Source: Eledone cirrhosa (lineage: Eukaryota). From it: a stretch of DNA of 64,000 nt. Of the stretch, positions 3,348 to 59,972 are shown one piece after another (positions within the stretch are counted from its first letter, which is position 1; each line of letters starts with the position of its first letter). The notes below the pieces were generated by a model. That model was not told the DNA's origin. It did no database searches and worked only from the letters and a program-made list of their open reading frames with translations. A program made the position numbers and the translations under genes. The stretch lies in the NCBI GenBank assembly GCA_964016885.1, contig OZ024742.1:319486001-319550000 (forward strand), written 5' to 3'.

Positions 3348-4319
3348 TTACCTTATCATAAACCTAACGAAAATCTTAGATATATACACAAAGAGTCTTG
3401 CCATCCCCCTATAGTTTAAAAAAATCTTATTCCCAACATTAGCCATACGATTTTTACCTTATCTTCGTCTCTAGACATTTTTAATAAAGCCCTTAATAAC
3501 AGCGGATTTACAGAACACATTAATTACTTACCTACTCCTCCCCCTAAAACTAACCACAATAATAGGAAAAGGAAAATTATTTGGTTTACACCTCCCTTCT
3601 CTCTAACTGTCAAAACTAATGTTGGGAGGAAATTCCGTGACCTCTTAGACAAATATTTTCCTCCTAATCATAGATATCAAGGGCGGTGCCCCAGCATGGC
3701 CTCAGCCAGATGGCTGAAACAGGTAAAAGAGTAAAAAAAAGAGTATTATAAGATATTTAATAGAAATGTAGTTAAAATTAGTTACTCTTGCTGCCCATCA
3801 ATGAAGTCTAAAATCACCAATTCTAATCGTACGAGAATAAATCTAGGATGCAGTTGCGGAAAGCCGGATGAATGCCCATTACAGGGCAAATGTAACACCA
3901 AATCCGTTGTATATGAGGCCAAAGTGACACCTTTAATTGACAACCAGCCAGCCAGGAGTGAACGATATGTTGGCATGACTCAGTACAGGTTTAAAACCAG
4001 GTTTTATGCACATGTTGCTTCTTTTAAACACTCCGATAAAAGAACAACAACGGCTCTCGCAAATAAAGTGTGGGAATTCAAGGATAAAAACATCCCGTAC
4101 TCTATAGATTGGTCTATTTTAGACCATTCGAGGGAGTACCAAAGGGGCACAAAAAATTGTTCTTTGTGTACCACTGAAAAATTTAGGATTTTACAAAACT
4201 TGAAAGCCACTTCAACTTGCCTGAAGTCCAAGACCGAGATGTTCAGATGTTGTCCTCACCTGAAATCACATCTGACCTGTAACTGGATTGACATTCCTAC
4301 GATGACTCAACCACCTTGA
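3348..4319 (+). pseudogene. Penelope-like RT thumb/linker plus C-terminal GIY-YIG endonuclease
   Basis: VYEAKV...RYVGMT...FKTRFYAH (GIY-YIG) flanked by CSC...CPLQGKC and CSLC...EK motifs; in-frame TAA near 3417; interrupted by an insert at 3678-3743. Confidence 0.85.
3678..3743 (+). mobile_element. Short 5'-truncated SINE/LINE 3' end inserted in the Penelope ORF
   Basis: caagggcggtgccccagcatggcc...gctgaaacaggtaaaagagtaaaa with A-rich tail; removing it (with a duplicated TAT) restores HRYYKIFNRNVVKISYSC. Confidence 0.7.
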
Positions 4320-4556
4320 GCTTCTTCTCTGCTCTCTATGCCTTACATCCACTATGATTTTTATTTCTCTCTGAACTCACTTTCTGTACTCTTATATTCT
4401 TTTTCTCCCTTATCTCCCCTTGTATTTAAACTTTTTACTATGTTATTATTCTTTTATATATTTTCATATATGTGTATATGTTTTATATATATATATATAT
4501 ATAATAGCCGTCGAAACGGCTTGAGCTCTGCCGTCGGGGTCATACTGTTTCCTATG

Positions 4557-4637
<81 letters not shown>

Positions 4638-4662
4638 TTTTGTATGGTTGTGTTTGTGTATG

Positions 4663-4711
<49 letters not shown>

Positions 4712-4749
4712 ATGTATGCGTGTGTATATATATATACACACGCATACAT

Positions 4750-5152
4750 GAGATGACCCCTTAGCCTTTGTCAAGGCAGAATTCTAGGAGAAGGAAAACT
4801 CTGATATAACTCCTGCAACTCTGATGGTATCCAATGATGTTGACTTGTTCTTCTTTTTGGTAAATATCATCTTGGTTAAGAGAGTGAGACTGGCTTTGTG
4901 CAGTGCCTTTGCTAACTATAAAAGCTTCATGGCACAGGCATTGCTTTATATCTGGAGATCTCTCTGCACTTGTCACATGGTACCATGGGCCCAGCACTAT
5001 GTGTTAATAATTGTCACAAGTGTAGTGTTTGTACCAGAGTTTTCAAGTCGCTGGCTGGACTAAAAAGTCACATTCGTTCAGCGCATCGGTGGGGGTTCTC
5101 CTACACGCATATAAAGTAGTGGCCGTACTCGAAAACGAGTTGGCAGCCACCA
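4750..5152 (+). mobile_element. Non-autonomous RTE/BovB-like derivative, 5'-truncated copy
   Basis: Highly similar to 56118-56518; encodes a terminal C2H2 finger [22 protein letters not shown]; ends in a hairpin then (TA)n. Confidence 0.7.
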
Positions 5153-5575: not shown

Positions 5576-5632
<57 letters not shown>

Positions 5633-5758
5633 GTTCTATTTAAATTGTTGAGATACAACAAGCAAATATTTTTATAACTGATATAAAGCACTCAACAAAT
5701 TATTGGAGTAAAAATACGATATATTAACAAATGGAAACTATATTTATAAAACCATATT

Positions 5759-5823
5759 TATTTCATTATACATATTTCAAGGACACCAAGTCAAATTATG
5801 GTGCGCTTTCATCAGATAAAATA
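5759..5823 (-). ncRNA. Minimal type-I hammerhead ribozyme motif (minus arm of palindrome)
   Basis: Reverse complement reads tattttat-CTGATGA-aagcgcacca/tggtgtcctt-GAAA-t...ATA-atgaaata. Confidence 0.65.
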
Positions 5824-6070
5824 TAATATAGATCAGTTTTATAAATAAATATTGACATACCCTTAAAGAATGCGACCATTTCTGTTGGAAGCTCCCGGAT
5901 AGTGGGGTTATTAAATTTATTTAGTCTATTATGCAAATTAGTGTCGGATATACTAATTTGCATAATAGACTAGATAAATTTAATAACCCCACTATCCGGG
6001 AGCTTCCGACAGAAATGGTTGCATTCTTTAAGGGTATGTCAATATTTATTTATAAAACTGATCTATATTA

Positions 6071-6135
6071 TATTTTATCTGATGAAAGCGCTCCATAATT
6101 TGACTTGGTGTCCTTGAAATATGTATAATGAAATA
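6071..6135 (+). ncRNA. Minimal type-I hammerhead ribozyme motif (plus arm of palindrome)
   Basis: Stem I tattttat/atgaaata; CTGATGA 6079-6085; stem II 6086-6115; GAAA 6116-6119; predicted cleavage after ATA at 6127. Confidence 0.65.
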
Positions 6136-6166
6136 AATATGGTTTTATAAATATAGTTTCCATTTG

Positions 6167-6223
<57 letters not shown>

Positions 6224-6451: not shown

Positions 6452-6494
<43 letters not shown>

Positions 6495-6600
6495 AATTAA
6501 AATACTAGAGTGCGTTGGAGTAAAACATACTCGTCATATTATAGAAATGACAGTATAGGATATAGCTCAATGTAATACAACAGAGCCGAAAAATTATAAA

Positions 6601-6632
<32 letters not shown>

Positions 6633-6636
<4 letters not shown>

Positions 6637-6993
6637 GCATCTCTAACAAAACGCACCCCCACCCCATCCACACCGCCCCTTTCAATGGAAAGTTATGTTG
6701 GTGCCACAACATCCAGGCCGAAACAAATGAGATCGTGTAGGTGTCATGACAAAAAAAAAACACAGTCCACGCTGTAATGTGGCCGTGTAGGCAACACGGT
6801 AAAAACCCTCCCAGTCCCACACTGTAAATGTGGTTGGTGTTAGGAAGGGCACCCAGCTGTAGAAAACCCGCCAGACAGTCCTATGCGAGCAAGACAACCA
6901 CTCTTGCCTCAAGTGGGAAAACTCCCGTCCAAACCCATGCAAGCGTGGAACATGGACGTTAAACGATGATGATGATGATGATGATGATGATGA
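6633..6993 (+). mobile_element. RTE family B 3' UTR-only copy with (GAT)n tail
   Basis: Matches 22588-22957; preceded by (TA)n. Confidence 0.9.
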
Positions 6994-7168
6994 TATATGT
7001 CTATGTGTTTATATGTATGTATGTGTGTATGTGTGTGTGTGTGTGTGTATGTGTGTTTATCTACTTTTATATTTATTCTTTTTCCTCTCCTTCTTTCTTT
7101 TCCAGCCTCACTTTCATATAGGTTATATTTTTGTTTTTAAAATCCAGTCAATAAATACAACAGGATTT

Positions 7169-7229
7169 TTTCATTCTGATGAATGAAAGCAAATTTCGTT
7201 TGCTTTCAAGAAACCACTAGTAAATGAAA
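7169..7229 (+). ncRNA. Minimal type-I hammerhead ribozyme motif of a Penelope pseudo-LTR
   Basis: Stem I tttcatt/aatgaaa; CTGATGA 7176-7182; 10-bp stem II tgaaagcaaa/tttgctttca (A.A mismatch at its base); GAAAC-cacta-GTA, predicted cleavage after 7222. Confidence 0.7.
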
Positions 7230-7553
7230 TAATTACCTTATGTTGTTTATTACATAACTATTAAGCTCTGTAACCTACTTAGAGCACTCTTTTCCTGGAC
7301 CTTTCCGACGGAATTACTTCATTTATATATATATATATGAATTGGGCAAATAGTTTAGTGATGTACTGAAGTTAAGAGATGAGCTTGAGAAGAAAGAGTA
7401 TGCAACAGTTAGATAGTTCAGATAAGTAGAGGCCACTGTAGTTGATGAGGCAGACATTGGACGCCTTGTCTATAAGGTTGTACTATAATGGTAATTAATG
7501 CTACATACAGTTAATTTTTTTTTGAGAACATTTTAGCAATGTTCCAAATCTAA

Positions 7554-8253
7554 TCTATATATATAAAACTGAGGTTGTCTGTCTGTCTATCGATTTTTGG
7601 CACACATCTCCTCTTAGAATCTCTCACGGAATTGCACCGAAATTGCTATACTTGTACATTGAGCCCTAGCGAAGACATCGGAAAAAAAATATTTCAAATT
7701 GACCCGCCCTATCTGACGAAATCGAATATAATGTATCGATTTTTGAGCGTAAGTGATCAGTTATTTCCCTTTGTTCTGTTTACATTGAGCGTCTTACGTT
7801 CTGTCGTGCAGAGAGGTGATATACGCGTGCAGACAGACAGTCATGCAGAGAGGTGATATACGCGTGCAGACAGACAGTCGTGCAGAGAGGTGATATAGGC
7901 ATGCAGACACAGTCGTGCAGAGAGGTGATATAGGCGTGCAGACAGACATAACTGATAATTTGGTTACGCTAATGTTTTTCTCTGCGTTGCAGTGTTTACA
8001 TTTTCGATCTTTGTTAATAAATAACCAGTGCAGTTTCTATCCCCAGCATCCTCTTTTGTTATAACATTCGGGTTATCGTTATGTTTTCTTAACTTCATAA
8101 GGCATATTGTTGGTTGAGGGAATATTAATCAAAAACACCACATGCAAGTCTGCACAGTAGACACTACAGTTTTTAAGCCAAAAAAGAAACTTAACATTGT
8201 AACTTTAACACAGCTACTGAGCGACCCCAAGCAACGCCGGGCTTTACTGCTAG
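7554..8253 (+). mobile_element. Non-autonomous Helitron with internal minisatellite
   Basis: A|TC start (tctatatatataaaact), 3' hairpin cccaagcaacgccggg then CTAG|T; second copy at 59011-59972. Confidence 0.9.
7801..7948 (+). repeat. ~39-bp minisatellite inside the Helitron (~3.5 units)
   Basis: Unit gtcgtgcagagaggtgatata(c/g)gcgtgcagacagaca. Confidence 0.9.
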
Positions 8254-21295: not shown

Positions 21296-21837
21296 TCAGT
21301 TCTTCCTCTATCTCTCTTTATCTCTTTCTCTGGCTTTCTCTGCTTCTCTAGAAGACATTAACTATATTCAGGCCTAGGTAGGGATGGGCTCTGCCAGGTT
21401 TAAAGTGCCCATGACACCATGTGTCTGGATGATGCCCCTACATCTCCAGGAGTAATGAACCTTTTCCTTTCTTTAATATAAAGATGTTGACTAACTGAAA
21501 TCTCATTATAATGCTATTTAATACCTATTATAAATAGATTTAATGATTCTGATTATAAATTGTGTACATTTTAGTATGGGTAATCTTGAGCAGGTTGATA
21601 TTAAGTGGGCAACACATTTTGAGAGTCTGTGCTCACATTTGCAATGGTCTTCTAACAAATTCTCTTGCATGCCCATAGAAATTTTGATCAGCAGATTAGT
21701 TTCTATTGTATTTGCATTTTACAAGTTATTTTATGGAGAAAGAGAACAAAAAAGTTTGAAAGCTTTATTAAAGAAGTTTGTGTTTTTGTTGTTATAGTGT
21801 TAATCATAGGCTGTACCACTAAGAGCAGAGATGATAG

Positions 21838-22957
21838 ACATTTTGTGTCCTAAATGCAAAGTATGGGTGCATAAAAGATGTAGTGGGATCACAGGTAAGC
21901 TAACTAAGAACATAGATTTTACATGTGGCCGGTGTTCTGGTGCAATAAGTAGCAGCAAGTGCCCACACAATACTAGCTCTTTCAATTGCGCAGAGGGTTC
22001 TATAGAAATAGTGGACAGCTTCCGTTACCTGGGCGATAAAATCAGCAGTGGGGGAGGGTGCTCTGAAAGTACTGTAGCTAGAGTCAGAACTGGTTGGAAA
22101 AAGTTCAGAGAGCTTATACCACTATTAGCTGCTAAAGGGTTCTCCCTAAAAATGAAAGGCAGGTTGTACGATGCCTGCATACGAACAGCAATGTTGCATG
22201 GCAGTGAGACCTGGGCATTGTGTGCAGAGGATATACGCAGACTAGAGAGGAACGAAGCTTGCATGCTCCGCTGGATGTGTAACAGTAATATACGTGAACG
22301 GCAAAGCATAAACGAACTAAGGAAAAAATTAGAGATAAGAGGGATCAGATGTTGTTTACTCGAGAGAAGGCTACGTTGGTATGGACACGTGATGCGCATG
22401 AAAGTCGATAGCTGTATAACAAAGTGCAGGGCAATAAAGATAGACGGTAGCCACGGAATAGGCAGACCTAGAAAAACCTGGGACGAGCTGATAAACTCCG
22501 ACCTCACACACTTACACCTCTCCAAGACAATGTCACTGGACCGAGACCTTTGGCGGTACTCAGTAACAGAGAAGACCCGCCTTGCCAGTAGGCATCTCTA
22601 ACAAAATACACCCCGTCCCACCACCACCACCCCCACCCCATCCACACCACCCCGTCCTATGTAAAGTTATGTTGGTGCCGCGCCATCCGGGCCGAAACAA
22701 ATGAGATCGTGTAGGTGTCACGACAAAAAAACACACAGTCCACGCTGTAATGTGGCCGTGTAGGCAACACGGTAAAAACCTCCCAGACCCACACTGTAAA
22801 TGTGGTTGGTGTTAGGAAGGGCATCCAACTGTAGAAAACCTGCCAGACAGTCCTATGCGAGCAAGACAATCACTCTTGCCTCAAGTGGGACTACCCCCGT
22901 CCAAACCCATGCAAGCGTGGAACACGGACGTTAAACGTTGATGATGATGATGATGAT
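21838..22957 (+). mobile_element. RTE LINE family B, 5'-truncated inside the PHD finger
   Basis: Open frame to 22601 (ILCPKCKVWVHKRC...FRYLG...RLRWYGHV...GRPRKTW); 3' UTR with C-rich tract; (GAT)n tail. Confidence 0.95.
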
Positions 22958-23149
22958 TGCTGCTTTAACATTACTTAGAAGCATTTAAACAATTTTTAAA
23001 GCAGTATATAATTGAACTCACATATCCACTCCTGAAGTGATTCACCCCACTTCCATAAAATCATCAACAAAAAATCCTATCTCAGGTATGTCTATAAAAT
23101 GTCTTCATATGCCATATGGTTTTACTCTGGGCTACAATGGATCATCAGA

Positions 23150-53302: not shown

Positions 53303-55912
<2,610 letters not shown>

Positions 55913-55914
55913 TA

Positions 55915-56518
55915 TGTCAGGTCACCAGTTGGTGCTACTGGTAACATGTATCCCAGTACAACCTGTCCCATGGTCGGGTCGTTGGCGACTAAACTGGCAA
56001 CCCCACCAAGGTTTCTTGGTGAGGAGGGTGACTTTGGACATCCTGCAGGACTAAAAACAAAACCTGTCAAAGGGCAAAGGAGCTCTTAAGAGTCAATGGC
56101 CATCCAAAATCACCGGGAGAGATGACCCCTTTGTCAAGGCAGAATTCTAGGAGAAGGAAAACTCTGATATAACACCTGCAACCCTGATGGTATCCAATGA
56201 TGTTGACTTGTTCTTCTTTTTGGTAAATATCATCTTGGTTAAGAGAGTGGGACTGGCTTTGTGCAGTGCCTTTGCTCACTATAAAAGCTTCACGGCACAG
56301 GCATTGCTTTATATCTGGAGATCTCTCTGCACTTGTCGTCACATGGTACCATGGGCCCAGCACTATGTGTCAGTAATTGTCACAAGTGTAGTGTTTGTAC
56401 CAGAGTTTTCAAGTCGCTGGCTGGACTAAAAAGTCACACTCGTTCAGCGCATCGGTAGGGGTTCTCCTACATGGATATAAAGTAGTGGCCGTACTCGAAA
56501 ACGAGTTGGCAGCCACCA
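55915..56518 (+). mobile_element. Non-autonomous RTE/BovB-like derivative (5' UTR-like head plus ORF 3' end)
   Basis: Head ggtcgggtcgttggcgactaaactggcaaccccacc; terminal C2H2 [23 protein letters not shown]; 3' hairpin ctcgaaaacgag then (TA)n; second copy at 4750-5152. Confidence 0.7.
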
Positions 56519-58204
<1,686 letters not shown>

Positions 58205-58498
58205 AATGAGAGGTATAGAGATTGTTTTAGCGAGAAGCTAACAGCATTCTATAACATATATGTGACTATAACGTCAAGATGGGAAAAGTAGTTAATGTAG
58301 GATTTAGGAAAAATAATTCAAACTCATCTCATCTCAAAAGAGAATCAGGATATAAATTCATCCACAGAATTTAGTGAAATCCAGGGAAAAATCAATAGAC
58401 CTTTAACTCATGATAAAATAAAGTTTAAAACACTTATCCTTCAATTTGGAATAACATCAAATGCTCTGTATAGTCTTAAAAGACTATTTCATGAAAAC

Positions 58499-59010
58499 AT
58501 ATTATATATTTATATATATATATATATATTATATATTTATATATATATATTATATATTTATATATATATATATATTATATATTTATATATATATATTATA
58601 TATTTATATATATATATATATATTATATATTTATATATATATATTATATATTTATATATATATATTATATATTTATATATATATTTATATATTTATATAT
58701 ATATATTATATATTTATATATATATTTATATATTTATATATATATTTATATATATATATTATATATTTATATATATATTTATATATATATTATATATTAT
58801 ATATTATATATATATATTATATATATATTATATATTTATATATATATATTATATATATATATTATATATATATTATATATTTATATATATATATTATATA
58901 TTTATATATATATATTATATATTTATATATATATATTATATATTTATATATATATATATTTATATATATTATATATTTATATATATATATATTATATTTA
59001 TATATATATA
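58499..59010. repeat. (TA)n/(TTATA) low-complexity array
   Basis: Seen directly. Confidence 0.95.
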
Positions 59011-59972
59011 CTAGCAGTAAAGCCCGGCGTTGCTCGGGGTCGCTCAGTAGCTGTGTTAAAGTTACAATGTTAAGTTTCTTTCTTGGCTTAAAAACTGTAG
59101 TGTCTACTGTGCAGACTTGCATGTGGTGTTTTTGATTAATATTCCCTCAACCAACAATATGCCTTATGAAGTTAAGAAAACATAACGATAACCCGAATGT
59201 TATAACAAAAGAGGATGCTGGGGATAGAAACTGCACTGGTTATTTATTAACAAAGATCGAAAATGTAAACACTGCAACGCAGAGAAAAACATTAGCGTAA
59301 CCAAATTATCAGTTATGTCTGTCTGCACGCCTATATCACCTCTCTGCACGACTGTCTGTCTGCACGCCTATATCACCTCTGCACGACTGTCTGTCTGCAC
59401 GCCTATATCACCTCTCTGCACGACTGTCTGTCTGCACGCCTATATCACCTCTCTGCACGACTGTCTGTCTGCACGCCTATATCACCTCTCTGCACGACTG
59501 TCTGTCTGCACGCCTATATCACCTCTCTGCACGACTGTCTGTCTGCACGCCTAACGACAAAATATTTGCTTGTTTTACGTAGTCTTTAAATAGACTTGTT
59601 TTCAAGTAAAAATATTGTTTTAAAATGCTTTTAAATGGAAATGAAGCAAAACGGAAGCTTAGTGTTCAACTGTTCGTGTATTGTGTTAATGTCATTTTAA
59701 ACGCTGAGAAAGCCAGCGTAATTTTTTACGTAAGACGCTCAATGTAAACACACAAAGGGAAATAACTGATAACTTACGCTCAAAAATCGATACATTATAT
59801 TCGATTTCGTCACATAGGGTGGGTCAATTTGAAATATTTTTTTTCCGATGTCTTCGCTAGGGCTCAATGTACAAGTATAGTAATTTCGGTGCAATTCCGT
59901 GAGAGATTCTAAGAGGAGATGTGTGCCAAAAATCGATAGACAGACAGACAACCACAGTTTTATATATATAGA
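59011..59972 (-). mobile_element. Non-autonomous Helitron, longer copy
   Basis: Reverse complement has A|TC...hairpin cccgagcaacgccggg...CTAG|T; about 6 minisatellite units and an extra ~170-bp segment relative to 7554-8253. Confidence 0.92.

Follow-up and report, generated by a model that had tools for sequence, protein, structure and literature searches.

Is the near-perfect palindrome of some 450 bp in the genome of Eledone cirrhosa, which carries a hammerhead motif on each strand, a mobile ribozyme-bearing unit in its own right or the remains of a known element, and what becomes of RNA transcribed through it? The window analysed here is a 64,000-nt stretch of contig OZ024742.1 (assembly GCA_964016885.1), in which the left arm spans 5719–5942 and the right arm 5952–6175, each of 224 nt with 9 nt between them. 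The initial annotation had described arms of ~224 bp with about four mismatches and a 9-bp spacer, which we confirm, the mismatches being exactly four (right-arm positions 5973, 6008, 6020 and 6092). The hammerhead motif that it had placed on each strand is there as well, with CTGATGA at 6079 (+) and 5815 (−), and both arms can be paired as a type I hammerhead with a stem I of 8 bp, an interrupted stem II of 8–9 bp, GAAA, a 2-bp stem III with a 4-nt loop, and an AUA cleavage triplet. Stem II is unbroken in the left-arm minimal motif (5759–5823, minus strand); in the right-arm motif (6071–6135, plus strand), where the cut is predicted after 6127, the A>T change at 6092 loses one stem II pair. 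None of the 14 matches in one Rfam search, and none among the best 150 of 164 rows in another, was to a hammerhead model; the Rfam matches that were obtained were miRNA-type, which any hairpin or TA repeat triggers, fell under the gathering scores in every case, and were discarded. We therefore call the ribozymes putative, from motif and pairing. Across family copies the hammerhead core is conserved at 97.3%, barely above the arm average of 95.4%, owing to the youth of the family. Minimal PLE hammerhead motifs are described as cleaving poorly in vitro (PMC4209133), and the hammerhead of the Anolis PLE is described as requiring protein (PMC11167929). A second hammerhead motif lies at window 7160–7245 (+) and belongs to a different family, as had been proposed of the motif at 7169, to which the arm gives no BLAST match; a relative of this second motif, with CTGACGA, adjoins the arm at another locus (L004).

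The arm proved to be a young dispersed repeat, with at least 41 full-length matches at 98–100% identity (40 of 1,516 first-look candidates scored) and a 35-nt arm word that is matched exactly 102 times in the genome. Other copies show the element running on through the 9-nt “spacer”, with its outer end either at the arm or 89 nt beyond it, and the 89-nt tail continuing into the element body. One arm copy leads straight into a GIY-YIG-like open-reading frame (ORF), and across 20 ORF-bearing 10-kb loci the arm was present in 19, in direct pseudo-LTR (pLTR)–tail–ORF–pLTR order in three and with an inverted 5′ arm in seven. The ORF encodes reverse transcriptase (RT) motifs and a VY...YVG motif conserved across 10 aligned homologues, and recruits 859 homologues at E ≤ 0.001, the best at 36–41% identity and with an Argonauta protein among them; the top homologue has PF01541, and searches of the protein itself (P0002) against Pfam and PDB gave no direct match. 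By the motifs of this ORF, the arm is the pLTR of a young Hydra-clade Penelope-like element (PLE) with an RT and GIY-YIG ORF.

The Hydra clade is described (PMC8557442) as having a C-terminal GIY-YIG domain, RW[KR], DKT, a CxCX5C linker, no CCHH, CxxC and CxH, a hammerhead and a (TA)n target. Every listed motif is shared by the family here: RIRWRAF at one locus (L063; an RWR variant also present in homologues), the DKG-to-DKT change as KSDKT in P0002, the CxCX5C linker, and CxxC and CxH around the E and N residues with CCHH absent, along with the (TA)n target (74 of 82 family ends run into TA-type repeats), the inverted 5′-truncated copy and the one-sided tail. Our first guess, the Neptune clade, was rejected on the absent CCHH and the CxCX5C linker, and Neptune and Nematis alike on the lack of a CCHH with two cysteines in the GIY-YIG domain and of a CX2-5CxxC linker. 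The family differs from the clade as described there in its unit of 3.7–4.2 kb with a long 3′ UTR, which exceeds the “<3 kb” that is a tendency of Hydra elements and not diagnostic, in its tail of 89 nt versus 30–40 nt, and in that the insertion studied here is missing its whole body. Further PLE ORFs, which match RVT_1 and GIY-YIG in Pfam, lie 25–30 kb upstream (L086:6884–9202, plus strand; L087:1280–2959, minus strand), and in the latter locus a LINE PHD-like piece is fused in frame to a PLE piece.

The layout of the palindrome follows that of its family. Head-to-head pairs carry the tail on exactly one side in 15 of 15 cases (two at complex loci), with inter-arm distances from 0 to ~4.4 kb. 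In the window, the left arm (minus strand) is an inverted pLTR end, 100% identical to other genomic copies, with the 89-nt tail, the start of the element body, at 5630–5718 (−) on that side only; the right arm (plus strand) is a 5′-truncated pLTR end without a tail, and the “spacer” (5943–5951, −) is simply the next nine bases of the left copy, joined bluntly. The (TA)n target flanks the insertion at 5580–5629 and 6171–6220. The right arm has three near-private changes and one shared CpG-type change: 5973G is absent from all 67 other copies, 6008G is present in 1 of 70, 6092T is absent from all 84, and 6020T, at a CpG site, is present in 13 of 73, so that the arm mismatches, which we considered as evidence for two templates, are uninformative. 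The typical PLE structure is described as an inverted 5′-truncated copy that has a tail on one of its ends (PMC8557442; PMC3846280), and the tail corresponds to two internal reverse-transcription start sites as reported in PMC11167929. Truncated PLEs that leave minimal hammerheads paired on opposite strands are themselves on record (Cervera and De la Pena 2014, PMC4209133), sharing with ours the minimal type I motifs with a 1–2-bp stem III, placed 100–700 bp apart on the two strands; stem I is longer here (8 bp) and the ribozymes here are putative. The palindrome is thus almost certainly a known PLE structure, a body-less head-to-head insertion of two element ends, and the suggestion that it was an undescribed system falls with that earlier publication.

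Such a pair probably formed by reverse transcription primed from both cut DNA ends, with the cDNAs joined early; the start points of the two cDNAs would be the two internal sites, at the tail end and the no-tail end. Self-priming on an antisense template has been put forward as an alternative origin of PLE pairs (PMC3846280). At L063:2700–2810 both family ends, no-tail and tail, lie on ATAT-like sequence, which suggests that priming may use homology to the TA target, in contrast to the in vitro behaviour of the Anolis element.

The initial annotation had left two options, two inverted pseudo-LTRs left behind by an extremely truncated PLE or a non-autonomous, retrozyme-like palindromic unit, and had proposed a genome-wide arm search to separate units with conserved ends from pseudo-LTRs of coding PLEs. 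That search returned the pseudo-LTRs, since the arm flanks RT and GIY-YIG ORFs elsewhere, and did not return the unit. A distinct ribozyme element, retrozyme- or MITE-like and mobile as a whole, would explain two hammerhead motifs with no ORF, and retrozymes have been argued to derive from PLE pLTRs (bioRxiv 10.64898/2026.07.22.740005). The exact-pattern search, however, found the fold-back at this centre in only two genome places, the window and the duplicate described below, against the 102 exact matches of the arm word, and it therefore does not replicate as a unit; the arms of other head-to-head pairs are separated by anything from 0 to >4,000 bases, and there is no tandem same-strand hammerhead pair. 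The junction count refutes this option, unless diverged copies escaped the exact patterns, and we regard it as scarcely credible. With these two places as the only matches, no fold-point hot spot was seen at the palindrome site.

What the palindrome does to RNA is another matter. Any transcript through the locus is predicted to fold into a 224-bp duplex of −359.5 kcal/mol, compared with −7.4 kcal/mol for the ribozyme alone. The duplex would outcompete the ribozyme fold, so the hammerheads would be shut off and travel as passengers. The initial annotation had predicted from the long hairpin an ADAR substrate, and a duplicate of the locus hyper-mutated from A to G bears this out to a greater degree than it had expected. 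A segment of ~2.04 kb, from 4947 to ~6990–6994 (+), is duplicated 14,887 bp upstream, outside the window and in unchanged orientation (G000:C3:319476034–~319478135); its unique part was found at these two places only. The flanks of the duplicate are unrelated to those of the window segment and comprise TA runs on both sides, within which any target-site duplication is indistinguishable, and at its 5′ junction it overlaps the TA target by TATAT.

Two observations make the window the donor. A dispersed repeat (4743–5151) is complete in the window, whereas the duplicate breaks it off at 4947, a position that four other copies of the repeat span; the window allele is also the PLE-family majority at 30 of the 30 sites at which the hairpins differ. 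Outside the hairpin there are 17 differences, of which 14 lie beyond the 3′ junction of the duplicate, two are in a microsatellite and one is real, giving one substitution in 981 bases of non-microsatellite flank; this near-identity implies that the event is very recent. The sole flank difference, at window 6852, has in the duplicate a base that matches another family copy (window 21701–23000), which would mean a later change in the donor or an RNA transcribed from the other allele. Four TA runs can be paired between donor and duplicate, three differing in length (50/72, 50/64 and 36/58) and one equal (24/24). Also carried in the duplicate, from between TA runs, is an end fragment of another young repeat (window 6452–6600; many copies, 93–99% identity) with a tail-like sequence resembling the tail of the palindrome PLE.

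Within the hairpin, by contrast with the flanks, donor and duplicate differ at 30 sites, and all 30 are A>G on the plus strand, 15 in each arm. Thus 30 of 163 hairpin adenosines are changed versus 0 of 304 adenosines in the non-microsatellite flanks (including 39 in the unpaired tail), and none of 294 non-A hairpin bases (Fisher p = 3e-15). ADAR disfavours a 5′ G neighbour and favours a 3′ G neighbour, and here adenosines with a 5′ G are depleted among the edited (0 of 22, p = 0.015) while those with a 3′ G are enriched (8 of 17, p = 0.004). The cluster is likely to be the ADAR hyper-editing of one RNA molecule, ADAR being the enzyme to which the pattern points. If instead the changes had been made on DNA, either by minus-strand cytidine deamination with the window as the derived copy, or by adenine deamination in a cruciform after a DNA-level duplication, one-strand G>A change would mimic the pattern under reversed polarity, and APOBEC-edited retroelements are known in genomes (PMC4866542). 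Polarity largely refutes this, the window carrying the family allele at every site; a cruciform would moreover expose both strands, yet there is no T>C, and the substitutions end at the duplex boundary with ADAR-type neighbours. We hold a DNA-level origin to be very improbable.

To what extent do other hairpins show such a skew? In a control of 1.23 Mb with simple repeats masked, a sample of 0.04% of the genome that is enriched for the PLE family and region of the palindrome, 158 hairpins were found, 41 of them with at least 10 transition-type mismatches. A single one, the duplicate, was skewed between G·T and A·C mismatches at p < 1e-3 (34:0), and the remaining hairpins summed to 644:597. Among 104 distinct PLE-family copies strong skew was confined to the two arms of the duplicate, that is to one locus, with one short copy (3 of 5) flagged as well; of 42 matches to the edited left arm, none was a second copy sharing its edits. 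An unmasked first pass had put 5 of 141 hairpins at p < 1e-3, among them an apparent second edited hairpin in L086 (242:1), whose signal is a flanking TA/TG microsatellite; like it, L180, L037 and L125 disappeared after masking, and a search using the L086 microsatellite as the query gave no match. At L086:770–2170 and 3580–5000 and at window 53487–59010 there are long (TA)n tracts in which scattered G occurs on a single strand, with equal polarity on both sides of the inserted element; these tracts mimic an editing skew. Between the kilobase TA/TG tracts of L086 lies an unedited, retrozyme-like array of ~308-bp units with a canonical-looking hammerhead (L086:2173–3584, C3:319458173–319459584), comprising an inverted part and about three tandem copies. 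Further, an inverted pair at L171:7964–9157 shows mismatches skewed 1:12 (p = 0.003, uncorrected for the 158 tests), and a 37-bp tandem unit occurs in opposite orientations at window 7803–7948 and 59316–59553.

The duplicate is known from the assembly alone, and it sits suspiciously close to its donor between TA repeats, where mis-joins occur, which raises the question of whether it or its G alleles could be an assembly artefact, a false duplication combined with polishing or gap filling with RNA-derived reads. Polishing with RNA would, however, edit hairpins in place, and the donor is unedited; no skew at p < 1e-3 appears in any of the 157 other hairpins, a set that includes those from ~500 kb surrounding the locus; and the copy has flanks and TA lengths of its own as well as a separate flank substitution, in a stretch with no N gap between donor and copy. 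Contig sets from three sequencing runs contained 0.04–0.06 of the words of the edited copy, and none of the contigs listed bridges the fold-back junction or has linked G alleles; contigs drop rare variants and may come from another individual or species, so these count neither way. An artefact is in our judgement improbable, and the edited duplicate is likely to be a real write-back of RNA into DNA.

The 3′ end of the duplicate points to the enzyme. At 6633–6994 (+) the donor contains the 3′ end of a 5′-truncated LINE with a (GAT)10 tail, and the duplicate stops inside this tail, with (GAT)8 running into (TA)n. We take this LINE family to be RTE-like from its C-terminal motifs, and it encodes an RT (L087). 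Twelve of 19 of its ends, donor and duplicate included, consist of GAT then TA/AT, and the (GAT)8–(TA)n form of the duplicate is shared with 11 of 18 other family ends. With its 3′ end at the LINE tail, 5′ truncation inside a repeat and microhomology, the duplicate has these traits of a LINE retrocopy, and the (GAT)8–(TA)n end together with the TATAT overlap at the 5′ side favours LINE-driven priming. Among 82 ORFs from the window and 40 kb upstream no host gene or exon was found, and Pfam gave retroelement domains only. ATAT also comes after the LINE tail in the donor, so that the 3′ junction may just as well reflect plain microhomology exploited by a different reverse transcriptase. That the edited RNA is real and was copied by such an enzyme, either that of the PLE acting in trans or one engaged in RNA-templated repair of a TA break, primed by AT microhomology, would suit the AT overlaps with the target at both junctions and the habits of the palindrome PLE family, which also targets (TA)n and has both its ends on ATAT-like RNA sequence; PLEs are described as able to mobilise host sequence in trans (PMC3846280), and a landing 15 kb from the source is unexpected under ordinary dispersed retrotransposition. 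Against this, the copy ends at neither PLE start site but ~800 nt further on, in the LINE tail, and its reduced number of GAT units (8 vs. 10) is the usual end form for that LINE. Copying by another enzyme is therefore the unlikely version, and, given that the write-back is real, the LINE was probably its enzyme.

Taken in order, plus-strand read-through RNA would fold back on itself, ADAR, as the presumed enzyme, would deaminate 30 of the 163 hairpin adenosines in one RNA, and LINE proteins, to which the junctions point, would prime in the (GAT)n tail at the RNA 3′ end, copying ~2 kb that was then joined through the TATAT overlap into a nearby TA repeat. We give a probability of roughly two in three to this full reading, in which the hairpin RNA from the PLE ends was edited by ADAR and reverse-transcribed nearby by LINE machinery. 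Landing within 15 kb of the source has a uniform chance of ~1e-5 (one event), and in this one case such proximity suggests the capture of nascent RNA. A tentative extension, which we think somewhat less probable than its opposite, is that chromatin-tethered nascent RNA underwent hyper-editing by ADAR before being reverse-transcribed back into its own chromosomal neighbourhood, with the duplex supplied by PLE fold-backs, the handle by truncated LINE tails and the landing pad by TA repeats.

The published precedents that we found for the write-back of edited RNA are retroviruses and L1 insertions in cultured cells. In the latter, ADAR editing was reported for 3 of 235 processed-pseudogene insertions made by human L1 (PMC11702581); as described there, these share with our duplicate the clustered one-strand changes confined to an inverted repeat in a retrocopied RNA, but they arose somatically under experimental conditions, from mRNA 3′ UTRs, whereas ours is in an animal genome assembly, derives from a non-coding repeat-rich RNA and lies 15 kb from its donor. 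In the avian retroviruses RAV and ALV, A-to-G hypermutation is fixed by reverse transcription according to a review (PMC12925331), again as A-to-G clusters in an inverted repeat, the template there being viral RNA copied by its own enzyme and here host RNA, likely copied in trans. APOBEC editing of LTR retrotransposons, as presented in PMC4866542, likewise leaves clustered strand-biased edits in genomic copies, polarised by family alleles, but these are G-to-A changes on cDNA, unconfined to duplex and of a polarity opposite to that seen here. Our literature search, of incomplete coverage with subscription papers mostly missed and supplements excluded, found no report of germ-line ADAR-edited copies in animal genome assemblies. 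Distinctive here is that donor and copy both survive, 15 kb apart.

The palindrome by itself is ordinary PLE debris. Its duplicate, if real, is a single-molecule hyper-editing record kept in DNA, which would mean that a non-coding locus underwent plus-strand transcription and editing in cells contributing to the assembled, and likely inherited, genome, and that A-to-I edits are able to become mutations. Given the 15-kb distance, one can test whether nascent RNA returns to DNA close to where it was transcribed. Should that prove true, RNA editing would have a path to DNA change that is heritable and locally placed, in an animal that edits heavily, and the unedited donor alongside would serve as the control.
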